Below, in pieces: positions 43,350-57,287 of a DNA stretch of 57,963 bases. Every line of letters starts with the position of its first letter. Position 1 is the stretch's first letter. The DNA is from a virus. Lineage: Duplodnaviria; Caudoviricetes. The notes beneath the pieces are model-generated. The model ran no database searches. It saw nothing but the letters and a program-made list of their open reading frames with translations, and was not told the DNA's origin. The translations under genes were made by a program, and so were the position numbers. Where the stretch lies: positions 1-57,963 of IMG/VR virus record IMGVR_UViG_3300033997_000554. One strand, given 5' to 3'.

Positions 43350-46300
43350 ATGGAAAACTTTGAAAATCCCGCTGACGGGATCGAGTTCAAAGACAACGTG
43401 GCAGCGCGCCGCGATCAGGTCCGCGCCGACCTGGATGTCCAGTTCTCGGACGCCGGTGCGCCGGCGGGCGCCACCGGCAAGCCCTTGCCGTTCACTTTCC
43501 GCGTAGCCGACTACACGCGGGCGCAGCAGGATGGCGGCGGCATTGAGTTCGTCGACTTCCCCAAGACGCTCGCCGGCGGCGCGATCAAGGGCGCCGGCAG
43601 TGCCGTGCGCGGCGTGGGGAAGGTTGCCGAAGGCCTGGGCCGTGTCGGCGTGACGGCGGTGAACCAGGCCTTTGATGCTGGCCTGGAAATCCCGACCAAC
43701 CCCCTGGAGGGGGCGGCGGATGCAACGCATCGCCTGGGCGAACGCGTGCTGGATTCGCGCACGGCAGAGGCGAAGCGCCGTGAGGCCGACTCGCAGCCGG
43801 GCGGCGACCTGGACAAGCCAGAAACCTGGACGCTGGGCCGCGACCCGTCAGCATCGGGCTTGGCCCTGCAGGCGCTGAACGCCGGCGGTTCCAGCGCGCT
43901 GCCTGTCCTCGCGTCGGTGGCTGCCGGCCCCTTGGGGGTCGGGGCCCGCATGGCCGCAGGCGCTGCTGCTGGCGGCGCCATGGGCGGCGGCAATGCGATC
44001 GAGCAGGCGCGAGAAACGATCGACGGCCTGGACGACCAGCAACTGGCCGCTGCATCGTCCGCATATCGAGATCTGATCGCGCAGGGCGTGACGCCGGAGG
44101 AAGCGCGCGCCCGGGTGCGCGCCGACGCCGAGAATGCCGCATTCGTGCGCACGCTGCCTGTGTCCGCCGTCGGCGGCGCGGCGACCGGCCGGATCCTGTC
44201 GCCGGCGGGCCGCGTGCTTGGCGATCGCGGCGTGGTGGCGCAGACCCTGGGCAAGGCCGCCTTGGCCGGCACCGAGGAAGCCGTCCAGGAGGTCGGCGAG
44301 GGCTATGCCACCCAGAAGGGTATCAACGCCGGCGCGGGCATGGCGCTGGACCCGATGGCCGGGTCTTTCGGCAACGCGGCGCTGGGCTTCGTCGCAGGCA
44401 TGGGGCCGGGCGCTGTGCATGGCGCAACCGAAGGCGTGCGCCACCGCGGCGTGCCGTCGGCGCCGAGCCTCGAGGCGGGCGACGTGATGCACGCCAGCGG
44501 CAAGCCGTTCGTGACGGCCAGCGCCGCGCGCCAGCGTGCCGAGGAGCTGGGGGAGTGGGCGCAGGTGCTGCGCTACGAAAACGGGTTCATCGTGCGGCCT
44601 GGGGCGGCGGTCGACCAGCAGGCCGCTGGCGCCGCGCCGACGGCAGCTGAGGGCAGCGGCGGCACCGAGGGCGCGCCGGCTGCCACGGACACGGCGAATG
44701 CAGACGGCCAGGCCGCAGGCTTCGCGCCGCGCCAGCAGGTCTACCTGCGGCAGAACGGCCGCGAGCTGCCCGTCGAGTTCCTGGGCGTGGAGAGCAACGC
44801 CGCGACCGCGCGCGCCGGCGGTGAACAGCTGGCCCGAATCCGGACGGCCGACGGCCGCGGCCGCTTCGTGCGGCTGTCTGAACTGTTCGCCGAGCCCATG
44901 CCGGGCAACTCGCTGCGCCAGGCCATGGACGGGCCGGCGGCGCTCGAGGGGCCGGAGGCCTTTCCCGTGCTGGACGGGCCGATCCAGCGCGCGGCATTGC
45001 CGGCGCCGGACGGGTATGCCGCTGGCGAGGGCTTCGTCGCCCGCGACTCGTGGCGCATGCCCGCCAACGCGCCGCGCGGGATCCGCAACAACAACCCCGG
45101 CAACATCCAGAGGGGCGCCGGCTTTCAAGGTGAAGTCGAGGGCAATGATCCGCGCTTTGCCACCTTCGCCACGCCGGAGGATGGTATCCGCGCGATCGGG
45201 ATGAACCTGCTGACCTACCAGCGCCAGCACGGTCTGGACACCGTGCGGGGAATCTTGAACCGGTGGGCGCCGCCGTCTGAAAACGACACCGGCGCATATG
45301 TGGGCCAGGTGGCGCGCGCGCTGGGCGTGGAACCCAACCAGCAGCTGGATCTGAGCGACCCGGCGACGCTGACCGGGTTGACCGCCGCCATCATCCGCCA
45401 CGAGAACGCCATGCAGCCTTACAACGCGGCGCAGCTGGAGGCAGCGGTAAGCGCCGCGCTGTCCGGTGCGCCGGTGCGGCGCGCGTTGCCGGCCCCGGTC
45501 TATCAGGTCGACGGCGAGGGCGTGGCGGCCACCGCCGGCCAGCGTGACGCCGAGCTGGCGCGCCAGGCGGCTATGGGCATGACGCCCGATGTCGCGGCCG
45601 CCGGCGAGCGCCACCCCGGCGCGGCAACCGACGCCGCAGCCCACGAGGCGGCCACGTCGCCGACGAACGACCGCCCCGAGCCGACCGACGCCCAGAAGGA
45701 TGCCGGCAACTACAAGGTCGGGCGCACGCGCATCGCCGGCCTGGATATCTCGATCGAGAATCCCGAGGGGTCGGAGCGCCGCGGCACGTCCCCTGACGGC
45801 ACCAGCTGGGCCAACCGGATGGCGGGCCACTATGGTTACATCCGTCGGACTCAGGGCGCCGACGGCGACCAGGTGGACGTATTCGTTCGCCCTGGCACCA
45901 CGCCCGATTTCGCCGGCCCGGTGTTCGTCATTGACCAGGTCGATCCTGCTGGCGGCCGGTTCGATGAAGCGAAGGTGATGCTGGGCTACGACACCCGCGA
46001 GGACGCCGAGCGCGCCTACCGCGACAGCTACACGCCGGACTGGCGTGGCATGGGCAAGATCACCCAGATGGACGTGCCCACGTTCAAGCGCTGGATCGAC
46101 GAAGGCGACACGACGAAGCCCGCGTCGGAATCCGGCCTGGGTACGCTGGTGGCCGAGCCCGACATTACCGCCAAGGGGGGCCGCCCCTTCCTGACCCGTG
46201 GCGCGGCCCAGCGCGCCGCCACGCTGCACGGGAATGCCGACGTCGAACCGGTGGATGGCGGCTTTGTGGCGCGGCCGCGCACCGGCCAACCCCCGCGCGA

Positions 46301-49300
46301 GGCGCCGGCACCTTCTGCGGCCGACTTTGCGCGCGGCGCGCGGCGCGACTTCCTGCAGATGGTGCGCCAGGCCGGAGGCATCCGCCCCGAGCTGGCAGCC
46401 GATATCTACGGCGATCGCGCCCACCTGGCCAACCGGCGGGCGCCCGGCCTGTTCCGCCAGGGTGGCATGGACGCCGACCGCCTGGTGGAAGCCATGCAGC
46501 AGGCCGGTTACCTGCCTATAGAGGGCGACACCGTCGACTTGGCGGGCACGGCTATGGATCGCGTGCGCGAGGCGCTGGAGGGCGAGGCGGTCTATTCGCT
46601 CGAGCAGATGGACGAGGCGGCGCGCCGCGCGTATGCTGAGCGCCAGGCCGAACGGTTCAGCGATGCCAAGGATAAAAACAAGCTGGCCGAGGATCTTTTT
46701 GGCGCGATCGACGCCATGCCGGCCGACACGACCATGCAGGAGCTGGCGGCGCAATTCGATGCCGCGGTCTACCTGAGCGAGCAAGGAATTACCGATGTCC
46801 CTACCCAAGAAGCCATCATCGAGCGAGCCTCAATCCAAGCCGACGGAGACGCCGGAGCATTCGAGCAAGCCGTTAAGTCCCAAGCAGCGGCGCTTGGTCG
46901 GCGGGACGATGGCGATCCTCGGCGCCCTTCGCAACAGCCAGGAGCGGGAAGCGATGGAGCAGGCGCAGGAGGTGATCGCCAAGGCGGCCCGCAAGGACTG
47001 ACCCTCGAAAGCCCGACGCCTGACGGGCTCCGGGCGGCAGCCAGCCAGCAGGCCGCCCAGCAGCAACAAGCCACCATCGAGGCCCGAGAGGCCGACCAGC
47101 GCGGCGCAGCTGATGCCGCGCGCGACGATTTTGTCCTGACCGGCAGCGACCGGGCGGCCGACCAAGCCGCAGCGCGGGGCCAGCAGGAACTGGCACCGGC
47201 CCCGGAAGCCCCCGCCGCGGCCAGCGAGCCGACCGCCCGTCCTGGTGGTCGCATCGAAGATTTCGGCGAGACGCTGCAGGGCGCCCGCAAACACTACGCC
47301 GAGCAGTACGCCGAGCGCATGCGCCAGGCCGAGGCGTTGCCGATCCGCGATCACGCCCTGGCCGAGACGTGGCCGGAGCCGAATTACGGCAAGCTCCTCG
47401 AGGACGGCGCCGACCCGTTCCTGGTGGCGCTCGTGCACGCCAGCCGCGACGAGATTCCCAGCAAGCCGCGCAAGGGATGGAAGCTCAAGGGCTGGGTCGA
47501 CCAGGTGCAGCGGCTGCGTGAATTCTCCGGCGAGCTGCTGGCGGGCAGGATCAGGGGCGCCGACGTGCGCGCCATCCTAGATAAGTCGCAGGATCTGCGC
47601 GACGTCTACGGGCGGGCCCAACTGTACGAGGCCGTGGGTCATGATCGATCCCTGCGCGGCGTGTCCCTGCGGTCGGCAGACTACAGCGTTTTCGCCGGCG
47701 AGAGGTTCGACCCGCCGCGCCGGATCTGGACCGTAGAGCGCAAGGCGTCCACCGGCATGGGCAACTGGCCGCAGATCGCCGCCAAGGGCGACAGCGCCGC
47801 GGCAGCCATCGCCGATTTCAAACGCGAGATGGACAGGCAGGCCGGCGAACCGGCGCCGGCGCGTGAGGTGCGTTTCGATATCTACTCGCGCCCGCGCATG
47901 CCTGGTTTCTACATCGGCAAGAAGGTCGGTCGGACCTACATCGACTTGCAGCACTTCGATGACGTCAAGGCCGCCCGCGCCTACCTGGCCGAGAACAAGG
48001 AGCAGCTGACCCAGCGGCTGGACGAGCTGAAGGACGTCCCGGCGCACCGGCGCGAGACGAACGCGCCGCGGGTTGGCGTGGACCACCGGGATGGCGGTGA
48101 CGTGACGCCGGCGCAGTTCAGCGATGCCTTCGGCTTTCGTGGGGTGCAGTTCGGCAATTATGTCGAGGGCGGCCGCCGCCAGGCTGATCTGAACGAAGCC
48201 TACAATGCCCTGATGGATCTGGCTGGCGTCATCGGCGTGCCGGCGCGTGCGCTGTCGCTCAATGGCGAGCTGGGCCTGGCCTTCGGCGCGCGCGGCGCCG
48301 GCGGGAAGGATGCCCCCATGGCGCACTACGAGCCCGGCCAGGTCGTTATCAACCTGACGAAGAAGCGCGGCGCGGGGTCGCTCGCGCATGAATGGTGGCA
48401 CGGCCTGGACAATTATTTCTCGCGCCGTGGCGGCACGTCGGCCGGGTACGCCTCAGAAGCAGGCGCTGCCACCACCGGCATCCGGCCCGCGATGGCCGAG
48501 GCCTTCGGGGCGCTCAAGCAGACGATCGGCCTGATCGGCATGCGAGAGCGGTCGCGCAAGCTGGATGAGCGCAAGGCGAAAGACTACTGGTCCACCGGCC
48601 GCGAGCTGTCCGCGCGGGCGTTCGAGAGCTATGTGATCGCCAAGCTGGCCGACCAGGGCGCCGCCAACGACTACCTGGCCAACGTGGTGCCGGAGAAGGC
48701 CTTCGGCGACGAGCTGGCCTACCCGTACCCGACCGCCGCCGAGATCCCGCAGATTCGGGCGGCGTTCGATCGCTTTTTTCAGACGGTGGATCAGGTGCCC
48801 GGCGAGGATGGCCGGATTGCGCTCGAGAGTCGGGGCGACGGCGGGCAGGGTGTCGACCCTGCCGAAGCGCGGCGCCTGGCGGCCGACTTCATGGGCAAGC
48901 TGCCGGGCGCAGCCGCCCTACGCGTGTCGGTTGTGGAGCGCGTCGACCAGATTCCCGAGGGGGCGAAACCGTCCGTGATGGCCGAGGGAGCCTACTACCC
49001 GGCGGGCGATGGCGGCCGGATCTACCTGGTGGCTGAAAACGTGCCCACGGCGGAGCGCCTGCAGCAGGTGCTGGCGCATGAGGTTGTCGGCCACTTCGGC
49101 GTCGAGGCGCTTCTGGGCGATCGCTTCCGCGACGTGCTGGCCGACGTGCGCCGTCTGGCTCGCGCGCCGGATGGCGCGCACATCCCGCGCGACGCGGGCC
49201 CGGACCATCCGCACTACGCCACCTTCGAGGCTGTGACGGCGCGCTATCCGGACTATTCGGCCGCCAACCGCGCCCGCGAAGTCCTGGCGCGCATGGCGGA

Positions 49301-52300
49301 GCAGGGCAAGCGCCCGGTGTTCCTGGAACGTCTCTACGGCATGATCCGCGCCGCGCTGCGGCGGCTGGGCCTGAACCTGCAGTTGAACAACGCCGACATC
49401 CGCAAGATGGTCGTCGACGCCGGCCGGTTCTTGCAGCGTGCGCCGGCGGCGCGAGTGAGCGCCGGCATGCAGGAAGCCGCCGCCTCGATGGCGGCCAGCC
49501 GCGGGGCAGACACCTCCGGCGCCGCCGTGACCGTGCTGACCGGCGAGGAGCTGGGCGCGGCCGAGCTGGGCGCCAAGGAGCTGCGCGATGCCGCGCGCAC
49601 CTGGGCGGCGGAGAACCTGAAAGGGAAAAATTTCGTGAACCGCGCGACCGGTTGGGCGGTGCAGGTCAGCCAACGCGGCATCAAGGAATCGCTGTCACGC
49701 AGCGCCCGCATCAGCAAGGTCCAGTCCATGGTGGCATTGCCGGGCCTGATCGAACAGGCCATCCTGGGCCATTCGGAAGCCAACCGCAACAAGCAGCGTG
49801 ATCCCTTTACCAGCCAGGTGCACACGCTGTATGCGCCGGTGGAGATCGCCGGCCAGGACTACCTGGCGCGTCTGGTCGTGAAGGAAAACGCCAACGGTCA
49901 CCTTTTCTACGACCACGATCTTTCCGAGGTGGTGGAAGCAAAACGCCCCGACAACACGTCTGCCGTAAGCATTCCCGCTTCCAAAGCGGGCGCAGATCAG
50001 ACGCCGTCAGGGCGAGGTTTTACGGTAGAAGATATCGCGGCGATCGTCAACAGGGAGGGACGGGCCGGCTGGGTGTTCGATCCTGGCGCGCTCGAGTCGC
50101 GCCGCCGCTACGAGAAAGCCCCGCCAGCCGCGGGGCTTCGTACTTCTGAGCTCGTGGAATCGCGCGCGGCCGCGGCGACCGCAGGCACCCCGCCAGCGCA
50201 GCCCGGCGCGGCCCGCGAGCCCAAGCGCGGCGCCAAGATCGAGCGCCCGGGCGAGACGCTGTCCGACATCGAGCGGCGCCAACGCAACAAATTCTTGGGC
50301 AAGATCGGCGCGTGGGCGGAGCAGGAACCCATCAAGGCGCGCCTGGCCAAGGCGTCCGATCGCTGGCAGGCGAAGCTGGTGCAGGGCATTTTCGATCAGT
50401 TCGCGCCGCTCAAGGGGATCAGCGCCACCGCCTACATGCAGGCGCGCCTATCCAAGGGCGCCGACGGCGCCGCCGAATACCTGGTGCGGCACGGCGCGGT
50501 CAAGCTGCAGGACGGCGCGCTGGACACTGCCGGCGGCAAGGGGCTGGCGGAAATCCTGGCCGGCTTGAACGGCGAACACGACCATTTCATGGCCTGGATC
50601 GCCGCCAACCGGGCCGAGCGCCTGGCTGCCGAATGGCAGGTGCGGTTCGACAACGGCGTGACCGAGCGCTTTGCGAACGAGGCCGCCGCGCGCACCGAGG
50701 CGGCGAAGTGGCCCGGCGCCAAGGCCGAGCCCGCGTCGCGCGAACGGCTTTTCACGCCCGACGATATCGAGGCCGGCAAGCGCCTGGCTCAGGGCAAGAT
50801 GGCCGACGGCCGCGATCGCGCCACCGTCTACCGCGAAGCCCTGGGCCAGTTCAACGAGCTGCAGCGCTCCGTCCTGGACGTGGCGCAGGAGGCCGGCCTG
50901 GTCGACCCCAGCTCGCGCAAGCTGTGGGAGAGCGAGTTCTATGTGCCGTTCTATCGGGTGATGGAGGACGACGCTACCGGCACCATGGGGCCCGGTCAGA
51001 TCGGCGGCCTGGTGGGCCAGCACGCATACAAGCGCCTCAAGGGCGGCACGGACAAGCTGGGCGACCTGGTCGCCAACACGGTGTCGAACTGGTCGCATCT
51101 GCTGTCCGCGAGCATGAAGAACCTGGCCGCGCAGGGCGCGCTGCAGGAGGCGGAAAAGCTGGGTGTCGCCACGCGGGTGCGCCAGGCCGAGCGGGGCAGC
51201 GTGCGCGCCATGTTCGCCGGCCAGGAACGCCACTACCAGGTATCCGATCCGCTGGTGCTGAACGCGCTGACGTCGCTGCATTACGTCGGCTCCAATGACC
51301 CATTCACCAAGGCGGCGCGAAAGTTCAAGCACGCGCTGACGGTGGGGGTGACCATCAGCCCGACCTTCCGCGTGCGCAACTTGCTGCGCGACACGATCCA
51401 GGCCATGGCGATCGACAGCAACCTGTCCACCAATCCGCTGCGGAGCCTGGTGGAAGGGTGGAAGGCAACCGGCGCCGAGAGCGACACCTGGCGCCGGCTC
51501 ATGGCTGGGGGCGGGGCGGTGCGCTTCGGATCCTTCAACGACGGCAACGCCCGCAACGTGAAGCGCCTGGTCGACGAGCTGGGCGCTCATCCCGACGACG
51601 TCATCACGTCGCCGGCCGGCATGGGCCGCGCGCTGCGCAAGGCCTTCGACTGGTATCAGGAAACTGGCGACCGATCCGAGACGATCAACCGCGCGGCGAT
51701 CTACCAGCAGGCACGCAAGGCCGGCCGCAGCCATCTGGAGGCCAGCTATGCCGCCCGCGACCTGATGGACTTCACCGCCGGCGGCACGTTCTCCGCCGTG
51801 CGGATGCTGTCGCAGGTGGTGCCATTCTTCAACGCACGCCTGCAGGGCATGTACAAGCTGGGCCGCGGCGCGGCCGCGGATCCTGCCCGGTTCGCCGCGG
51901 TAACGGGCGCCGTGGCGATGGCGTCGGCGCTGCTGTACCTGGGCATGAAGGACGACGACGACTACAAACAGCTGCCCGACTGGGCGCGCAATTCGTTCTG
52001 GATCACGAAGTTGCCGGGCACGAACCACTTCGTCTACATCCCGAAGCCGTTTGAGATCGGCGCCCTGGGCAGTGTGGTCGAGCGCGGCACCGAGCTGGCC
52101 TTTGGCGGGGACGACTTCCGCCTGCGCGACTTCGGCCGGACGGTGGGCGCCATCCTGAGCGAGCAGCTGTCGATGAACCCGGTCCCGCAGCTGGTCAAGC
52201 CGGCGATGGAAGCGGCGTTCAACTACGACTCCTTCCGCGAGCGCGACATCGACAGCGTCGGTCAGCAGCGCCTGCCGGCCGGCGATCGCTTCACGGCGTC

Positions 52301-52838
52301 GACCTCGGCCGGGGCGGTGGCGCTGGGCAAGGCGCTGGGCCTGTCGCCGCAGCGCCTGGAACACCTGGTGCGCGGCTACTTCGGCTGGCTGGGAACGCAG
52401 GCGCTGAACGTGTCCGATCACCTGGCCAGGCCGCTGTCGGGCCTGCCCGAGAATCCGCGCCGCGACCTGAGCCGCCTGGATAACTGGTTCGTAGTCGGCG
52501 ATTTCGTGAAGGAATCCGACCCGCGCTCGAGCAAGTACATCCAGCGGTTCTATGACGAGCAGCGCGAACTCAACCAGGTCTACGCCGCCTTTTCACAGGC
52601 GCGCGAGCTGGGCGACCTCGAGCGCGCCCGCGAGCTGGCCGGCGACGACCAGATGCGCCTGCGCGCACTGTTCAAGGCTGCCGACAGCCAGCTGCGGGAC
52701 GTCAATCTCAAGATCAAGGCGCTCGAGCGCGCGAGCATCCCGGCCGACGAGAAGCGCGCGCAGCTGGACCTGCTGTACCGCGCCCGTAACCGCCTGGCCG
52801 CGCTGGCCGACCAGCACGCCCGCAGCGCCCGTCCCTGA
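43350..52838 (+). CDS. Giant polyvalent virion protein (3162 aa)
   Basis: Lysozyme-like RGIRNNNPGNI (~45075), pyrophosphatase-like HYGYI..T.GADGD.VDVF (~45830), LPD1-like HEWWH (~48387), zincin HEVVGH (~49078), LPD3-like domain (~49530-49920), LPD38-like C-terminus. Confidence 0.9.
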   Translation: MENFENPADGIEFKDNVAARRDQVRADLDVQFSDAGAPAGATGKPLPFTFRVADYTRAQQDGGGIEFVDFPKTLAGGAIKGAGSAVRGVGKVAEGLGRVGVTAVNQAFDAGLEIPTNPLEGAADATHRLGERVLDSRTAEAKRREADSQPGGDLDKPETWTLGRDPSASGLALQALNAGGSSALPVLASVAAGPLGVGARMAAGAAAGGAMGGGNAIEQARETIDGLDDQQLAAASSAYRDLIAQGVTPEEARARVRADAENAAFVRTLPVSAVGGAATGRILSPAGRVLGDRGVVAQTLGKAALAGTEEAVQEVGEGYATQKGINAGAGMALDPMAGSFGNAALGFVAGMGPGAVHGATEGVRHRGVPSAPSLEAGDVMHASGKPFVTASAARQRAEELGEWAQVLRYENGFIVRPGAAVDQQAAGAAPTAAEGSGGTEGAPAATDTANADGQAAGFAPRQQVYLRQNGRELPVEFLGVESNAATARAGGEQLARIRTADGRGRFVRLSELFAEPMPGNSLRQAMDGPAALEGPEAFPVLDGPIQRAALPAPDGYAAGEGFVARDSWRMPANAPRGIRNNNPGNIQRGAGFQGEVEGNDPRFATFATPEDGIRAIGMNLLTYQRQHGLDTVRGILNRWAPPSENDTGAYVGQVARALGVEPNQQLDLSDPATLTGLTAAIIRHENAMQPYNAAQLEAAVSAALSGAPVRRALPAPVYQVDGEGVAATAGQRDAELARQAAMGMTPDVAAAGERHPGAATDAAAHEAATSPTNDRPEPTDAQKDAGNYKVGRTRIAGLDISIENPEGSERRGTSPDGTSWANRMAGHYGYIRRTQGADGDQVDVFVRPGTTPDFAGPVFVIDQVDPAGGRFDEAKVMLGYDTREDAERAYRDSYTPDWRGMGKITQMDVPTFKRWIDEGDTTKPASESGLGTLVAEPDITAKGGRPFLTRGAAQRAATLHGNADVEPVDGGFVARPRTGQPPREAPAPSAADFARGARRDFLQMVRQAGGIRPELAADIYGDRAHLANRRAPGLFRQGGMDADRLVEAMQQAGYLPIEGDTVDLAGTAMDRVREALEGEAVYSLEQMDEAARRAYAERQAERFSDAKDKNKLAEDLFGAIDAMPADTTMQELAAQFDAAVYLSEQGITDVPTQEAIIERASIQADGDAGAFEQAVKSQAAALGRRDDGDPRRPSQQPGAGSDGAGAGGDRQGGPQGLTLESPTPDGLRAAASQQAAQQQQATIEAREADQRGAADAARDDFVLTGSDRAADQAAARGQQELAPAPEAPAAASEPTARPGGRIEDFGETLQGARKHYAEQYAERMRQAEALPIRDHALAETWPEPNYGKLLEDGADPFLVALVHASRDEIPSKPRKGWKLKGWVDQVQRLREFSGELLAGRIRGADVRAILDKSQDLRDVYGRAQLYEAVGHDRSLRGVSLRSADYSVFAGERFDPPRRIWTVERKASTGMGNWPQIAAKGDSAAAAIADFKREMDRQAGEPAPAREVRFDIYSRPRMPGFYIGKKVGRTYIDLQHFDDVKAARAYLAENKEQLTQRLDELKDVPAHRRETNAPRVGVDHRDGGDVTPAQFSDAFGFRGVQFGNYVEGGRRQADLNEAYNALMDLAGVIGVPARALSLNGELGLAFGARGAGGKDAPMAHYEPGQVVINLTKKRGAGSLAHEWWHGLDNYFSRRGGTSAGYASEAGAATTGIRPAMAEAFGALKQTIGLIGMRERSRKLDERKAKDYWSTGRELSARAFESYVIAKLADQGAANDYLANVVPEKAFGDELAYPYPTAAEIPQIRAAFDRFFQTVDQVPGEDGRIALESRGDGGQGVDPAEARRLAADFMGKLPGAAALRVSVVERVDQIPEGAKPSVMAEGAYYPAGDGGRIYLVAENVPTAERLQQVLAHEVVGHFGVEALLGDRFRDVLADVRRLARAPDGAHIPRDAGPDHPHYATFEAVTARYPDYSAANRAREVLARMAEQGKRPVFLERLYGMIRAALRRLGLNLQLNNADIRKMVVDAGRFLQRAPAARVSAGMQEAAASMAASRGADTSGAAVTVLTGEELGAAELGAKELRDAARTWAAENLKGKNFVNRATGWAVQVSQRGIKESLSRSARISKVQSMVALPGLIEQAILGHSEANRNKQRDPFTSQVHTLYAPVEIAGQDYLARLVVKENANGHLFYDHDLSEVVEAKRPDNTSAVSIPASKAGADQTPSGRGFTVEDIAAIVNREGRAGWVFDPGALESRRRYEKAPPAAGLRTSELVESRAAAATAGTPPAQPGAAREPKRGAKIERPGETLSDIERRQRNKFLGKIGAWAEQEPIKARLAKASDRWQAKLVQGIFDQFAPLKGISATAYMQARLSKGADGAAEYLVRHGAVKLQDGALDTAGGKGLAEILAGLNGEHDHFMAWIAANRAERLAAEWQVRFDNGVTERFANEAAARTEAAKWPGAKAEPASRERLFTPDDIEAGKRLAQGKMADGRDRATVYREALGQFNELQRSVLDVAQEAGLVDPSSRKLWESEFYVPFYRVMEDDATGTMGPGQIGGLVGQHAYKRLKGGTDKLGDLVANTVSNWSHLLSASMKNLAAQGALQEAEKLGVATRVRQAERGSVRAMFAGQERHYQVSDPLVLNALTSLHYVGSNDPFTKAARKFKHALTVGVTISPTFRVRNLLRDTIQAMAIDSNLSTNPLRSLVEGWKATGAESDTWRRLMAGGGAVRFGSFNDGNARNVKRLVDELGAHPDDVITSPAGMGRALRKAFDWYQETGDRSETINRAAIYQQARKAGRSHLEASYAARDLMDFTAGGTFSAVRMLSQVVPFFNARLQGMYKLGRGAAADPARFAAVTGAVAMASALLYLGMKDDDDYKQLPDWARNSFWITKLPGTNHFVYIPKPFEIGALGSVVERGTELAFGGDDFRLRDFGRTVGAILSEQLSMNPVPQLVKPAMEAAFNYDSFRERDIDSVGQQRLPAGDRFTASTSAGAVALGKALGLSPQRLEHLVRGYFGWLGTQALNVSDHLARPLSGLPENPRRDLSRLDNWFVVGDFVKESDPRSSKYIQRFYDEQRELNQVYAAFSQARELGDLERARELAGDDQMRLRALFKAADSQLRDVNLKIKALERASIPADEKRAQLDLLYRARNRLAALADQHARSARP
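46795..47001 (+). CDS. Overprinted 68-aa ORF in the +1 frame of the giant gene
   Basis: AAGGA RBS 7 nt before the ATG; GC3 bias shifts from the host frame to this frame. Confidence 0.6.
   Translation: MSLPKKPSSSEPQSKPTETPEHSSKPLSPKQRRLVGGTMAILGALRNSQEREAMEQAQEVIAKAARKD
49938..50016 (-). ncRNA. Predicted ~75-80 nt cis-antisense hairpin RNA inside the giant gene
   Basis: CGCCCUGAC/GUCGGGGCG, CGUCUG/CAGACG and CCCGCUU/AAGCGGG stems, ending in UUUUGCUU; mismatches are G-U pairs only on the minus strand. Confidence 0.6.
50022..50050 (-). promoter_or_regulatory. Internal antisense sigma70 promoter
   Basis: TTGACG (50050-45)-N17-TACCGT (50027-22). Confidence 0.6.
50112..50138 (-). terminator. Internal minus-strand terminator upstream of the antisense promoter
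   Basis: AAGCCCCGC-ggctg-GCGGGGCTT followed by TCT. Confidence 0.55.
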
Positions 52839-52898: not shown

Positions 52899-53309
52899 AT
52901 GTTCGCATTCAGCCTTTCGGCGCGCAGCCTGCAGCGCCTGGACGGGGTACACCCCCGACTTGTCGAAATCGTCAAACTGGCGATCCAACGCACCGCGGTC
53001 GATTTCACGGTAGTCGAGGGTCTGCGCTCGCCCGAACGCCAGCGCGAGCTAGTCGCCCAAGGCGCCAGCCAGACGCAGAACAGCCTGCACCTGCGCCAGC
53101 AGGACGGCTATGGCCACGCCGTCGACCTGGCGCCGCTGGTCGGTGGCGCGATTCCGTGGAGCGACTGGGAGCAATTCCGCCGCCTGGCCGACGTGGTGAA
53201 GGCCTGCGCGGCCGAGCAGGGCACGCCGGTGGAGTGGGGCGGGGACTGGAAGTCGCTCAAGGACGGTCCTCACTTTCAGCTGCCGCGCGGCTGGGCGGCA
53301 GCAGCATGA
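52899..53309 (+). CDS. Endolysin, M15 family L-Ala-D-Glu peptidase
   Basis: LS.RS..RL.GVHP.L, EGLRS.ERQ, S.H......GHAVD, WGGDW...DGPHFQL. Confidence 0.92.
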   Translation: MFAFSLSARSLQRLDGVHPRLVEIVKLAIQRTAVDFTVVEGLRSPERQRELVAQGASQTQNSLHLRQQDGYGHAVDLAPLVGGAIPWSDWEQFRRLADVVKACAAEQGTPVEWGGDWKSLKDGPHFQLPRGWAAAA

Positions 53310-53830
53310 TGAAGATGACCGGCCTGCTGGTGGGGTGGCGGGGGTATGCCGTTGCGGTGGTGGTGGGGGCGGTTGCTGCTGGTGGCGTGGCCTGGACAGC
53401 CCAGGCCTGGCGCTATACGGCGCAGTTGGCGGAGGTGCGTGCCGACCACGCGGAAGATCAAGCGGCCCAGGCCAAGGCTACGGTGGCCGCCGTCGAGGCT
53501 GTCAGGAATGAAGAAAGGCGGCGTATGGCCGCCGTGGAGATTGCCCGTGATGATGCCCAGAAACAAGCCGCTGCCGCGGCTACTGATGCTGCTGGCGCTC
53601 GTGATGAGCGTGACCGCTTGCGCGCCCGTGCCAACACGCTGGCTCGCGCCGCAGCAGCCGAACACCCCGCCCTTGCCGACGGAAGCCCGTCAGGAGCCGC
53701 TGCCGTCGATCTGCTCGCCTACATGCTCGGCCGCGCTGTCGATCGAGCTGAAGCGCTTGCGGGCATTGCAGACCGTGCCCGCGTCGCGGGACTGACCTGT
53801 GAGCGGGTGTACAACGATTCTCGCCGCTAA
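53306..53830 (+). CDS. Rz: Rz-like inner spanin (DUF2514-like)
   Basis: N-terminal TM helix, coiled coil, ADRARVAGLTCERVY. Confidence 0.85.
   Translation: MMKMTGLLVGWRGYAVAVVVGAVAAGGVAWTAQAWRYTAQLAEVRADHAEDQAAQAKATVAAVEAVRNEERRRMAAVEIARDDAQKQAAAAATDAAGARDERDRLRARANTLARAAAAEHPALADGSPSGAAAVDLLAYMLGRAVDRAEALAGIADRARVAGLTCERVYNDSRR
53550..53795 (+). CDS. Rz1: Rz1-like outer spanin lipoprotein embedded in Rz
   Basis: LLMLLALVMSVTAC lipobox, Pro-rich, +1 frame within Rz. Confidence 0.8.
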   Translation: MMPRNKPLPRLLMLLALVMSVTACAPVPTRWLAPQQPNTPPLPTEARQEPLPSICSPTCSAALSIELKRLRALQTVPASRD

Positions 53831-53945
53831 TTTCCCGCGTGAGGTGAGCATCATGCAAAGATCTTCTCGATAGATGCGTGCGACCACCATTGCGGAATAA
53901 TTGTGTAAACTCGATGCGGACACGAATTGAAATATATCTAAACTG

Positions 53946-54755
53946 ATGATTGAAAAAAAAGAGCTTGTTCCCCCTCTTAAATGGGCGGGGGGGAAGCGAT
54001 GGTTTGTGACCAACTATCGGCATCTAATCCCAGACTCCTACGATGGTTATATAGAGCCATTTGTGGGATCGGGGGCTCTTTTCTTCACGCTGCGTCCGAA
54101 ACAGGCAATTCTCGCTGATGTAAATCCGGAGTTGATTAATCTTTATTCGGTAATACGATCGGATCCGTATGGCATGCAGCGCAAATTGCTTCGCCATCAA
54201 AGGCTGCACTCAAAAGAGTATTTTTATTATATGAGAAAATCTGTCCCTCGCTCTGAGCTGGGGCGGGCGGCCAGATTTCTTTATCTAAATAGAACGTGCT
54301 GGAACGGGCTGTACCGGGTCAATGCTCAGGGAAAATTCAACGTTCCAATTGGGACGAAGACGTCTGTTGTGATGGATACGGATGACTTTGAAGCATTGGG
54401 GGGGGCGCTGAATGGCGTGTCTTTGCTGTGTTCGGACTTCGAGGCTGTTGTTGATCGGGCGCAAAAAAACGATTTTGTATTCGTTGACCCGCCCTATACC
54501 GTAGCTCACAACTTTAACGGCTTTGTGAAATATAACGAGGTGTTGTTTTCATGGGGTGACCAAGAAAGGTTGATGCAGGCGGTGAGTCGGGCGGTGCGTC
54601 GTGGGGCAAAAGTGTTAGTCACCAATGCTGCACACGATTCTGTCCGAGCGCTTTATGCAGGCTTCGAGCAAATGTATGTTTCCCGCAGTGGAGTCATTGC
54701 GGGTAAGGCAAGTGCACGAGGTAATTTCCAAGAGCTTGTGATTCGTTGCTACTAA
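53946..54755 (+). CDS. dam: Dam-family (D12 class) N6-adenine DNA methyltransferase
   Basis: LKWAGGK, EPFVGSG, FLYLNR.CWNGLYRVN..G.FNVP.G, DPPY. Confidence 0.93.
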   Translation: MIEKKELVPPLKWAGGKRWFVTNYRHLIPDSYDGYIEPFVGSGALFFTLRPKQAILADVNPELINLYSVIRSDPYGMQRKLLRHQRLHSKEYFYYMRKSVPRSELGRAARFLYLNRTCWNGLYRVNAQGKFNVPIGTKTSVVMDTDDFEALGGALNGVSLLCSDFEAVVDRAQKNDFVFVDPPYTVAHNFNGFVKYNEVLFSWGDQERLMQAVSRAVRRGAKVLVTNAAHDSVRALYAGFEQMYVSRSGVIAGKASARGNFQELVIRCY

Positions 54756-54760
54756 AAAAA

Positions 54761-55306
54761 ATGGACACTTGGGACGAAATAAAATCTAAGATGGCACGAA
54801 AACTGCAGACACCCGGGTGGTCCGCAGCAGGGGAGGTTGTTTTCACTCTTGTTGTGTCGAATCTCTCCTTGGGAATTATGCTGTTCATCGCATTTTTAAT
54901 CGATCGGGATGCCGAGATTTCAATGTGCGGCATATGGGAGCGGTTGGCAAGTAGCATAAATCCCACTGAAGTTTTGATATATATATTGGCGGTAATTACT
55001 CCGACTTTGTGGTATATGGCTGTCAATGTTCGCGCAAGAAAATACTTAAAAGGGTTTACCTGGATCCTGTTCTTGCAATGCGCTCTTATATTGGGGAGTG
55101 CTATTGTTTTTGCTCTCGCAAAAACTGGAATGACGTTGAATCAGCGAGTATTGATTCCGTTTGCTTGGGGAAGCTTTTTGTTTGCGATTGCGATTTGGTA
55201 CGGCGTCCTTGTATTTCAGAAAAGTGTTAAAGAGGGGCCGCATGTTGATGCAAGTGATATTGCGGCTAGAGGCGGCAAGGCAATGGCGCAGGAGCTGGAT
55301 TCATGA
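54761..55306 (+). CDS. Four-TM membrane protein, unknown function
   Basis: Four hydrophobic ~20-aa segments; starts 5 nt after dam and overlaps the next gene (ATGA). Confidence 0.8.
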   Translation: MDTWDEIKSKMARKLQTPGWSAAGEVVFTLVVSNLSLGIMLFIAFLIDRDAEISMCGIWERLASSINPTEVLIYILAVITPTLWYMAVNVRARKYLKGFTWILFLQCALILGSAIVFALAKTGMTLNQRVLIPFAWGSFLFAIAIWYGVLVFQKSVKEGPHVDASDIAARGGKAMAQELDS

Positions 55307-56451
55307 AGAATAGAGCGGAGTTAGAGGCTTTTCGAGCCATTCCAGTCGAACAGCCTATAGGTGTTTTTTTTCTCGCCAGTATTCCGGCTCGAGATTTGGT
55401 GGAAATATCTTCTGCAGATTTGCGACACATGGAGCAGGAACTCGATCGCTACGTGGGTATTCAACGGGAGTTGAAGGCGGATCGGGTCGCTGAGATTGGA
55501 AAATTTGTTAATTCGGTTGATGCAACCTTCCCTACTTCCGTAGTGTTGGCGGTAAAAAGTTCGTGCGCTACCTTCGATGAGAAAAGAGGCACGCTAACCC
55601 TGCATGAAGGGATTGACGAAAGTTCGGGTGAGCCTATTCCGCTAGGAAAGGTAGCCAATATCCTGGATGGACAGCATCGCGTCGAAGGCCTGAAAGCGCT
55701 GGTTGAGCACGAGACATTCGATGTGCCAGTTTCAATATTCGTTGATGCTGATATTGCCGACCAGGCGTATATATTCGCAACCGTTAATTTGGCACAGACT
55801 AAGGTCAATAAAAGCTTGGTCTATGATTTATTGGATTATGCTAAGGCTCGAAGTCCTCAGCGCAGCGCGCATGAGATTGTTGTTGCATTAGACGGCGCTC
55901 AGAAAAGTCCGTTGTATCAGAAGATTAAGCGCTTGGGTACTGCTACACCTGGTCGCCAGCCTGGAGTCGAGACCCTCGCCCAAGCCACTGTGGTTAACGC
56001 GATTCTGCCCTTAATCTCCAGAGACCCAGAGACAGATCGTTTTGAGTTGGCGAAAGGAAAAAAGCTGTCGTTGAAGGATGTTCGATATGAAAGCACTCCT
56101 TTGCGTCATTTGTGGATAAAAGAACGAGATACTGATATTGCGAGAATATTGTTTGAATATTTTGCCGCTGTGAAGGAGCAGTGGCCCGAGGCATGGGATT
56201 CTAAAGAGAGGGGCGCAATGTTGGCGCGAACGAACGGGTTTCGTGCATTTTCTAAATTTTTTAAATTGGTTTATCTTCGCGAGCGTCCGGTGGCGGATTT
56301 GGAGAATCCGATCGTTTCGAGATCTAGGTACTCCAAGTACTTTTCCAGGGTCAAGCTGGAGAGTGAGTCGTTTAATTCTATGTATTTTCTTCCTGGCACG
56401 AGCGGTGAGACTTCCCTATTCAACCAACTCCGGAGAGATACCGGCGTCTAG
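55303..56451 (+). CDS. DGQHR-domain (DndB-like, ParB/Srx fold) protein
   Basis: GIQR.L...RV.EI..F, FPTSVVL, ILDGQHRVEG, IF.TVN..QTKV.KSL.YDL. Confidence 0.9.
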   Translation: MKNRAELEAFRAIPVEQPIGVFFLASIPARDLVEISSADLRHMEQELDRYVGIQRELKADRVAEIGKFVNSVDATFPTSVVLAVKSSCATFDEKRGTLTLHEGIDESSGEPIPLGKVANILDGQHRVEGLKALVEHETFDVPVSIFVDADIADQAYIFATVNLAQTKVNKSLVYDLLDYAKARSPQRSAHEIVVALDGAQKSPLYQKIKRLGTATPGRQPGVETLAQATVVNAILPLISRDPETDRFELAKGKKLSLKDVRYESTPLRHLWIKERDTDIARILFEYFAAVKEQWPEAWDSKERGAMLARTNGFRAFSKFFKLVYLRERPVADLENPIVSRSRYSKYFSRVKLESESFNSMYFLPGTSGETSLFNQLRRDTGV

Positions 56452-56574
56452 TGAAAGTCAAAGGCGCGCACGTTGTATTTGAGTTCGCGCCGTTTCCTGT
56501 CATGCCGAAAGTATCGTGGCTGTTGTTTGAGTGATTGCGCCACTTCTGAGAGAGCGGAGTTGCGGCCTGAGTTG

Positions 56575-56605
56575 AAAACGCCCCAGCCCGTGAGGGGCTG
56601 AGGCG
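56575..56605 (-). terminator. Intrinsic terminator of the SOS-regulated minus-strand gene
   Basis: CGCCTCAGCCC-ctcac-GGGCTGGGGCG-TTTT. Confidence 0.7.
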
Positions 56606-56684
56606 AGTGCTCTGCGGCGGCCGGCATGGGCGTCGCGAGCGTGATAAATCTATCATGGCCAATGGCCTCGTGGTGATGTGAGGC

Positions 56685-56999
56685 TCACTCGGTGACCCAT
56701 TGCATCCACCACCCCTGGTAGTAGCGCACACCGGCGATTTCCTCGAAGCCACAGACCATCATGCCCCGGTCCGATCCAAAGGTCAGCAACACTGGGTCAA
56801 GCAAGTCGGGGATCGCGCTTGGGATCCTGGCGCCAAACTTGGCCAAGCTTTCCATGGTCAGGCGCGGTACGTGGCGATTCAGCCCGTCATGGGGCATCGA
56901 GTACATCCGGACCGTGCCCACGACGGGCTGGCCTGGATCGTTGTCGCGGCGGCGTTCGCCGAGGTGGTGTGTGCGTAGGACGCTGCACTGGAATTGCAC
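56685..56999 (-). CDS. LexA-regulated small protein (candidate antirepressor)
   Basis: 104 aa, GTG start; L.DP.L....GM...GFE.I....YYQ.W; directly downstream of an SOS box. Confidence 0.7.
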   Translation of the reverse strand: MQFQCSVLRTHHLGERRRDNDPGQPVVGTVRMYSMPHDGLNRHVPRLTMESLAKFGARIPSAIPDLLDPVLLTFGSDRGMMVCGFEEIAGVRYYQGWWMQWVTE

Positions 57000-57014
57000 G
57001 ATCTTGCTCGAAAA

Positions 57015-57059
57015 ATACTGGATATATATCCAGTATAATTCGCCATCAAAGCGGTGCAA
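57015..57059 (-). promoter_or_regulatory. LexA (SOS) box overlapping a sigma70 promoter
   Basis: Perfect 22-bp palindrome ATACTGGATATATATCCAGTAT (57015-36); minus strand TTGCAC-N16-TATACT. Confidence 0.9.
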
Positions 57060-57092
57060 TTAGGCCCCGATTTTGGCCTTAGGGGACGGAAC

Positions 57093-57287
57093 ATGGCGGA
57101 TGTGACGGACTGGCAGCAGCGTGACGAATACTACTGGGCAGGGCCTGGCAGCTGGACCATCTGCCGAGTATTCGCACAGAACCGCTGGCAGTATGAGGTG
57201 TGGGCGGTGAATGGCACGCGCCACGGCATGGAGCCGTCCCTGGCCGCCGCGATTACGCTCTATGAGAAGGTCAAGCCGGTGTCATAG
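57093..57287 (+). CDS. Small Trp-rich hypothetical protein
   Basis: 64 aa, AGGGGA/GGA RBS, divergent from the SOS box. Confidence 0.65.
   Translation: MADVTDWQQRDEYYWAGPGSWTICRVFAQNRWQYEVWAVNGTRHGMEPSLAAAITLYEKVKPVS

Follow-up and report, generated by a model that had tools for sequence, protein, structure and literature searches.

What is the function of three tightly coupled genes that lie in an AT-rich block between the lysis genes and the right end of a GC-rich provirus? The question is raised by IMG/VR record IMGVR_UViG_3300033997_000554, a complete provirus of 57,963 bases, the whole of which we call the window and from whose first base the coordinates of its features are counted. An earlier note had read the block as a candidate defence or modification system made up of a Dam-type methylase, a membrane protein with four transmembrane helices and a DGQHR protein. 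We find that the three genes form a real and widespread module, apparently undescribed, that they are linked far beyond chance, and that the unit is horizontally mobile and carried as prophage cargo. Of the roles considered the most likely, about as likely as not, is that of a self-contained, modification-coupled exclusion module that would serve in defence, by a mechanism that we propose below. The block, its leading spacer and the three genes are as follows.

53831-56460, no strand: AT-rich inserted block with the cassette, ~47% GC in a provirus of 67-70% GC
53831-53945, + strand: AT-rich spacer of 115 nt from the spanin-type gene to the methylase gene, presumed control region
53946-54755, + strand: D12-class, DpnM-like Dam-family N6-adenine DNA methyltransferase, 269 amino acids (Pfam, NCBIfam, PADLOC)
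54761-55306, + strand: four-helix membrane protein of no named family, 181 amino acids (hydrophobic segments, AlphaFold2)
55303-56451, + strand: DGQHR-domain protein, 382 amino acids (TIGR03187, AlphaFold2, Foldseek, VIA-align)

The tight coupling described in the earlier note is confirmed in the sequence: the methylase stop codon TAA (54753-54755) is followed by five A's and the ATG of the membrane gene at 54761, leaving a 5-nt gap, and the membrane and DGQHR genes share an ATGA overlap at 55303-55306. Its description of an AT-richer block between the spanins and the SRAP gene also holds. The GC content is 0.473 over positions 53831-56460 versus 0.671 over positions 1-53830; windows of 400 nt within the block (starts 53800-56000) range from 0.44 to 0.50, compared with 0.67-0.70 upstream and 0.58-0.66 downstream, GC climbs again past ~56460, and the flanks are M15 and DUF2514 genes on one side and SRAP on the other.

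The identities that the earlier note gave to the three products are borne out by matches to profile hidden Markov models (HMMs) and by AlphaFold2 modelling. The first product is, by its family matches, a Dam/D12-class N6-adenine methyltransferase: it matches PF02086 at 8.3e-47 (160.5 bits, cut-off 22), TIGR00571 dam at 230.1 bits (cut-off 114.85) over residues 8-266, which is full-length, and PADLOC MTase_II at 4.4e-94. The motifs EPFVGSGALFF, with the FxGxG that binds S-adenosylmethionine, and FVDPPYTV, with the catalytic DPPY, align to those of DpnM. The best of its solved relatives is DpnM (2dpm, 1.9e-54) and the second is E. coli Dam (8.8e-29); because both methylate GATC, the target of the window enzyme is probably GATC too. 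The second product, 181 amino acids when counted from the ATG (the frame is open from a TTG at 54746 as well), has four hydrophobic segments at residues 22-40, 62-80, 96-114 and 129-147, and its AlphaFold2 model (predicted local distance difference test, pLDDT, 89.7) consists of an N-terminal helix, four transmembrane helices and a C-terminal cytoplasmic helix. It matched nothing in Pfam, PADLOC, NCBIfam or PHROGs, no fold in the PDB by Foldseek at E<=0.001, and hypothetical clusters alone in the ESM Atlas. No consistent Pfam family emerged among 49 members of the membrane family, the top one, DUF2871, reaching 3 of the 49 (0.0016). The family itself is large: searched against a library of 1.84 billion proteins, its profile retrieves 1875 representatives at E<=0.001, and the best 150 of these are all stand-alone proteins of 149-248 amino acids.

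By sequence the third product is a member of the TIGR03187 family of DGQHR-domain proteins, scoring 188.2 bits (cut-off 58.85), with a match to Pfam DndB at 5.5e-12. It has a ParB/Srx-fold N-terminal domain (approximately residues 10-165, with DGQHR at 122-126) and an all-helical C-terminal domain (166-382). More specific models are matched below their cut-offs: TIGR04172 at 199.1 bits (cut-off 450), the NCBIfam DpdB model NF041060 at 81.8 bits (cut-off 300) and the DndB model TIGR03233 at 16.1 bits (cut-off 328). In PADLOC it matches DpdB (6.6e-25) and DndB models only. The fold is seen in the AlphaFold2 model (pLDDT 89.2), whose N-terminal domain retrieves ParB, Noc and KorB by Foldseek at E values of 2.2e-4 to 5e-4, and in VIA-align comparisons with PadC (Z 7.8), KorB (6.6) and sulfiredoxin (6.1). 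For residues 166-382 VIA-align gave no clear structural match (best Z 5.0), and the family profile had 0 matches at E<=1 among PDB sequences. The DGQHR pentapeptide is exact in 99 of 99 relatives. The QR pair, DGQHR and FxxxN, which are described as the defining motifs of the DGQHR domain (PMC4619093), are present throughout: position 54 is glutamine in 97 of 100 sequences, and R55, D122-R126, F158 and N162 are invariant in all 100. Across phyla the mean column identity of the DGQHR protein is 49%, with 47 invariant columns, compared with 16% for its membrane partner. This strong conservation beside a diverging partner is in keeping with a ligand that is universal, such as DNA or a nucleoside triphosphate (NTP), rather than with a locus-specific operator. 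We also noted a conserved RSPQ[KR]xxH at residues 183-190 (H190 invariant in 100 of 100, position 187 lysine or arginine in 100 of 100, R183 in 79 of 100), which resembles the Rx6H motif of HEPN domains. Database relatives number in the thousands, and a search of proteins of 670-2000 amino acids, in itself weak evidence, found no fused DGQHR forms at E<=0.001.

Whether the three genes belong together can be judged from their relatives. We assembled 99 loci, the best 80 of 186 GTDB relatives (one genome per species) and 19 IMG/VR contigs, in which each open reading frame (ORF) was taken to begin at the earliest start codon following a stop, and membrane segments were predicted with a Kyte-Doolittle window. 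These loci span many phyla as well as the 19 viral contigs. An ORF of 146-258 amino acids with several membrane segments ends between -120 and +130 nt from the DGQHR start in 95 of the 99 loci; the remaining four begin at a contig edge, so that every testable locus (95 of 95) has the membrane gene directly upstream. When the window protein was used to seed a profile, one iteration found all 95, with one extra match among 6711 ORFs. In 76 of the 95 the DGQHR gene has a possible start codon that overlaps the stop of the gene before it, by 4 nt in 49. The co-occurrence elsewhere that the earlier note had wished to see checked is therefore found, both for this pair and for an adenine methylase, which is in the locus in 90 of 94 testable cases (within 300 nt in 87 of the 99 loci and farther away in 3). 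A methylase is lacking in 9 of the 99 loci, 5 of which have less than 200 nt of upstream sequence. Given that no other neighbour family is found in more than 8 of the 99 loci, we take the unit to be these three genes. The neighbours that do recur are a second DGQHR protein, larger than the first, and phage genes for tail proteins, regulators and integrases. The position of the methylase gene varies as follows.

63 of 99 loci: D12, directly upstream, same strand
14 of 99 loci: D12, downstream, convergent
3 of 99 loci: D12, downstream, same strand
3 of 99 loci: D12, mixed or overlapping
4 of 99 loci: MT-A70, adjacent
3 of 99 loci: methylase more than 300 nt away
9 of 99 loci: no methylase found

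The methylase is not only linked but replaced. In five loci its place is taken by an MT-A70 enzyme, which is unrelated to D12, while most of the others belong to the D12 clade of the window. A FastTree phylogeny of 100 DGQHR proteins requires, on its well-supported branches, three or more changes to MT-A70; a single clade, made up mostly of viral contigs with P2-type neighbours, holds 13 of the 15 loci with a convergent D12 gene. The methylase is thus swappable between families, and we regard this as a sign that methylation is functionally required.

A layout of the same kind is found beside a different modification. Plasmid relatives of the DGQHR protein with 26-30% identity (tblastn) are annotated 'DNA phosphorothioation-associated DGQHR protein 1' (TIGR04172); one of them, at locus L105, is a true member at 466 bits. 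In all five such plasmid loci inspected (L105-L109) a hypothetical protein of ~171-180 amino acids lies directly upstream, abutting or overlapping the DGQHR start, and there are dnd-type genes at a distance of no more than 9 kb; no dndFGH genes are annotated in these 9-kb flanks. Two of the small proteins were checked, and each has four hydrophobic segments at positions like those of the window protein. In these loci the two-gene layout of a small membrane protein and a DGQHR protein accompanies a second, chemically different DNA modification. Homology between the membrane families of the window and of the dnd-linked plasmids was also considered and is not demonstrable (hhalign probability 4.4%; HMM E values 0.0074 and 2.5).

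Structure prediction of the complex of the membrane and DGQHR proteins, another check proposed in the earlier note, gave a score of 0.48 (runs 0.43-0.52), compared with 0.00 for the best of three controls, with at least 77% contact agreement between runs and a partner pLDDT of at least 72. Of 157 solved complexes 116 attained this mark, as did 2 of 215 mismatched pairs, but those attaining it with a score of 0.60 or less comprise only 18 of the 157 solved complexes and both of the passing mismatches. The prediction therefore weakly suggests that the two proteins may bind each other.

The cassette is carried by proviruses, plasmids and islands and by the 19 IMG/VR contigs, and among its neighbours are integrases as well as tail and regulator genes of the P2 type. 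The second DGQHR protein, of 758-793 amino acids (TIGR03187, 129-155 bits), makes a four-gene variant at five loci; its gene overlaps or abuts the methylase gene in L009, L015, L055 and L068, and sits between the methylase and membrane genes in L067. Its N- and C-terminal regions have no family match. The five genes are located as follows.

L009:1745-4126: second DGQHR protein
L015:2218-4536: second DGQHR protein
L055:2138-4498: second DGQHR protein
L067:3033-5309: second DGQHR protein
L068:8180-10462, - strand: second DGQHR protein

How might such a cassette work? We hypothesize that the DpnM/Dam-like methylase would place N6-methyladenine on resident DNA, probably at GATC, so that the host chromosome and the prophage would both be marked as self. 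The DGQHR protein could then be an NTP-binding switch of ParB/Srx fold, anchored at the inner membrane by the four-helix protein to which it is translationally coupled, and able to read the methylation state of DNA. In the last and least certain step, unmethylated incoming DNA would cause the pair to stop the infection at the membrane, whether by holding or damaging the entering DNA, by tethering or occluding it, by disturbing the membrane as in abortive infection, or through a cryptic nuclease. The lysogen would be shielded from superinfecting phages, and the progeny of the prophage would exit already methylated. The role of reader is proposed because DndI is the nearest paradigm to have been worked out: it is described as a DGQQR (DUF262) ATPase fused to an HNH nickase, which couples with IscS-DndBCDE and whose ATPase is stimulated by phosphorothioate DNA, so that self is spared and unmodified phage DNA is restricted (PMC11662687). 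SspE is described likewise, as a phosphorothioate-reading DGQQR/DUF262 protein. A broader form of the proposal, which we find possible but doubtful, is that the membrane and DGQHR proteins may be a modification-agnostic immune pair, in which the ParB/Srx-fold NTP switch would read the mark of the host, N6-methyladenine (probably G-m6A-TC) here and phosphorothioate in the TIGR04172 clade, and would signal to its dedicated membrane partner in place of a fused nuclease, so that restriction would take place at the cell membrane, the point of entry of foreign DNA. If that were true, it would be a new way to couple epigenetic self-marking to defence. The interpretation in the earlier note, in which the methylase marks self DNA or is guarded, the DGQHR protein senses and the membrane protein acts, stands in part: the cassette is a recurrent, mobile unit outside the PADLOC models, and the defence roles continue to be argued by analogy.

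Several observations weigh against a defence module. The defence role itself rests on gene context and analogy, and neither Pfam nor PADLOC recognises a nuclease domain in the DGQHR protein, their matches being confined to its DGQHR/DndB/DpdB region. DndB, the best-studied DGQHR protein, is described as the repressor of the dnd operon (PMC4507180). Flanking ORFs match PADLOC models at E<=1e-8 in 23 of 136 cases (31 of 167 having been excluded for size, mostly on viral contigs), a rate given without a background control, and among the 23 matching flankers are 5 second DGQHR proteins and several generic helicases or regulators. The 353 GATC sites of the provirus (observed-to-expected ratio, O/E, 1.07) show no avoidance, which is uninformative either way. 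Four intact pairs (L043, L048, L062, L063) have no linked methylase, and the pair is therefore not obligatorily lethal when the adjacent methylase is absent. The draft genomes of these four exceptions hold an unlinked match in each case, to D12 in two (G001, 9.9e-18; G003, weak at 23 bits) and to MT-A70 in the other two (G002, 1.9e-28; G004, 2.5e-31), with none of 14 control genomes giving an MT-A70 match. At L048 an IS-type transposase (HTH_38 and rve; L048:4156-5453) lies directly upstream of the membrane gene, with an overlapping second fragment matching the membrane profile, which suggests that this locus was broken by insertion. Finally, the methylase next to the membrane and DGQHR genes is accompanied by a restriction enzyme of the BglII/BstYI family in L001, in L017, in Acinetobacter pTR3_1 and in pRiA4, and by an HNH protein in L003 and L044. 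At such loci the pair does not merely stand in for an absent restriction enzyme, and the methylase there, which in the BglII/BstYI loci is of the MT-A70 or long D12 type, could be the partner of that enzyme. The sites cut by BglII/BstYI enzymes contain a GATC core, and these neighbours hint that the pair may be tied to GATC-core methylation, perhaps to a common G-m6A-TC mark. The four enzymes are listed below.

L001:3899-4558: BglII/BstYI-family restriction enzyme
L017:3945-4748: BglII/BstYI-family restriction enzyme
L103:1084-1731: BglII/BstYI-family restriction enzyme
L104:1846-2652: BglII/BstYI-family restriction enzyme

Some of these points favour other explanations. The cassette could be a modification-control module without a restriction arm, in which the DGQHR protein tunes or assists the methylase, as DndB or DpdB would, and the membrane protein serves as anchor or sensor. 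DpdB is an ATPase helper of a DNA-modifying enzyme, and the window protein matches the PADLOC and NCBIfam DpdB models as given above; it has no recognised nuclease domain, and at some loci true restriction enzymes are found alongside the pair. DndB is reported to bind the dnd promoter and to lower phosphorothioate frequency (PMC4507180), and a DndB-like protein to bind ATP and GTP in vitro (bioRxiv 10.1101/2025.10.10.680097). We nevertheless consider this explanation unlikely, since the protein falls under the DndB (16 versus 328 bits) and DpdB (82 versus 300 bits) cut-offs, the pair accompanies two unrelated methylase families, the dnd clusters of the sister clade already own a DndB (L105), and the membrane partner, which is there in 95 of 95 loci, would be left without a role. 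Locus-specific operator repressors usually diverge, yet the DGQHR protein keeps its 47 invariant columns across phyla, and to our knowledge Dam-type methylases need no ATPase helper.

Another possibility is that two separate functions travel together, an anti-restriction or epigenetic phage methylase and a superinfection-exclusion or addiction pair that acts independently of methylation, for instance by a Noc-like tie between DNA and membrane. Noc, a ParB paralogue, tethers DNA to the membrane, and the DGQHR fold is nearest to the NTP switches ParB, Noc and KorB; the four loci with a pair but no linked methylase, the position at the prophage end, which is typical of accessory cargo, and the phage-borne Dam methylases that are described as evading host restriction (PMC10853773) are all in keeping with it. 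However, the 90 of 94 linkage and the repeated replacement of the methylase family are hard to explain without functional dependence, and the unlinked methylase matches in all four exceptions, one of the D12 matches being weak, also make separate functions quite improbable. A third explanation differs from our defence proposal, with which it overlaps, in the effector step alone: the DGQHR protein would itself be an endonuclease in a restriction-modification variant, and the membrane protein would do no more than position it. PMC10853773 cites ParB/Srx superfamily proteins that show nuclease and NTPase activity, DndB has been described as ParB-like plus HEPN (PMC3632139), the possible Rx6H motif includes an invariant H190 and a position 187 that is always basic, and a convergent methylase gene is typical of restriction-modification systems. 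The motif is however only partly conserved, R183 not being invariant, fold support for a HEPN domain was not found by VIA-align, neither sequence (with PF07510 and HNH among the families searched) nor fold gave a match to a nuclease or HEPN family, and separate restriction enzymes co-occur with the pair. We therefore hold a restriction-modification variant of this kind to be very improbable.

Should the proposed defence module be correct, it would add a compact, widely transferred three-gene type to the modification-based systems and a further example of prophage cargo that shields the lysogen. It would assign a role beyond Dnd and Dpd to the DGQHR family, which is large and for the most part unexplained, and it would link adenine methylation to a membrane-anchored ParB-like switch, for which we found no precedent in the literature searched. 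Given the sister clade beside the phosphorothioation genes, one series of experiments could explain two orphan gene pairs.

The remaining features of the window are those of a provirus, which also encodes a terminase, a P22-type portal and a capsid gene.

147-1361: integrase, provirus gene
43350-52838, + strand: polyvalent protein of 3162 amino acids with InPase, LPD5, LPD1, LPD3 and LPD38 domains
52899-53309: M15 endolysin gene, upstream flank of the block
53306-53830: DUF2514 spanin-type gene, upstream flank of the block
56685-57059, - strand: small ORF of 124 amino acids, between the cassette and SRAP
57054-57287, + strand: small ORF of 77 amino acids, between the cassette and SRAP
right end of the provirus: SRAP gene, downstream of the block

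The polyvalent protein, which is probably a virion-delivered multi-enzyme protein, is encoded immediately 5' of the lysis genes. Both small ORFs lie in the GC-rich backbone and have no Pfam match. Around the block we found no direct or inverted repeats of the kind left by an insertion, just short pairs at chance level. A sigma-70 consensus scan gave no promoter site in the spacer 53831-53945 and, over 53600-56800, two sites, both intragenic, versus 3.4 expected from shuffles; site counts from promoter and terminator scans were below or similar to those of shuffles, and a GC hairpin 3' of the DGQHR stop was no better than shuffles (z -0.59). Among other tetranucleotides of the provirus, CTAG is strongly rarer than expected (21 sites, O/E 0.38) and GTAC mildly so (O/E 0.77). 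Neither the block, at the nucleotide level, nor the DGQHR protein, in a protein search, found a match in 50,697 deposited phage records. At two of the related loci the downstream flank holds what are, by their PADLOC matches, neighbouring defence genes: an ORF just 3' of the cassette (L052:7144-7893) matches the PADLOC candidates PDC-M41B and PDC-M30B (8e-123), and a downstream ORF (L010:7153-8316) matches DISARM DrmC (1.6e-139).

Is the cassette a known system? The earlier note did not recognise it as a named one, and indeed no system model in PADLOC-DB 2.0.0 (2023) matches the pair of membrane and DGQHR proteins. A link to Dazbog that the note had drawn received no support, there being no Dazbog model among the PADLOC matches; this library presumably holds such models. 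We found no description of the cassette in the literature that we searched, although the supplementary tables of PMC10853773, PMC9122126 and PMC13586616 might list it, and the words ParB, DndB and Dam are absent from the main text of the papers on P2/P4 hotspots.

Type II restriction-modification systems of the DpnII/Dam type and orphan phage Dam enzymes share with the cassette a full-length DpnM-like D12 enzyme with DPPY. The gene orders, with the methylase upstream or convergent, also resemble those of restriction-modification operons, and BglII/BstYI-family enzymes accompany the pair in four loci. In the window, however, what is conserved beside the methylase is a membrane protein together with a ParB-fold protein; as the earlier note had also concluded, no restriction endonuclease is recognisable, family searches having found none in the block, with no such model matched by the three proteins, or in the two small ORFs before SRAP. 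DndB and DpdB resemble the DGQHR protein in their QR, DGQHR and FxxxN motifs and in being encoded with DNA-modifying enzymes, but the window protein is far under both equivalog cut-offs and the block, with three genes in all, contains neither dnd nor dpd genes. We know of no membrane partner that DndB or DpdB needs. The NTP-dependent DNA clamps ParB, Noc and KorB are the best structural matches of the N-terminal domain; they differ in their C-terminal domain, there is no sequence-level relation to the solved structures, and ParA, parS and helix-turn-helix or dimerisation domains were not identified here. The nearest named family by sequence is TIGR04172 (199 bits), whose members have an upstream small protein in an equal two-gene layout; they stand beside dnd genes and not beside a Dam or MT-A70 methylase, and the window protein is under the family cut-off.

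The closest functional analogues would be IscS-DndBCDE-DndI and SspABCD-SspE, in which a modification module stands beside a ParB/Srx-fold NTPase with a D-G-Q-[HQ]-R motif that discriminates modified self DNA. The window protein has a ParB/Srx-fold N-terminal domain with a DGQ[QH]R motif as in the GmrSD/SspE/DndI type, and VIA-align finds a weak likeness of fold to SspE (Z 4.6), BrxU (4.3) and DndI (3.3). Unlike DndI and SspE, it has no recognised HNH/DUF1524 domain and an obligatory four-helix membrane partner, which neither of those proteins has, and the mark here would be N6-methyladenine made by a single methylase and not phosphorothioate. Among modification-based systems of self and non-self discrimination with a ParB-fold reader, the new features of the cassette would thus be the membrane partner and the adenine-methyl mark.

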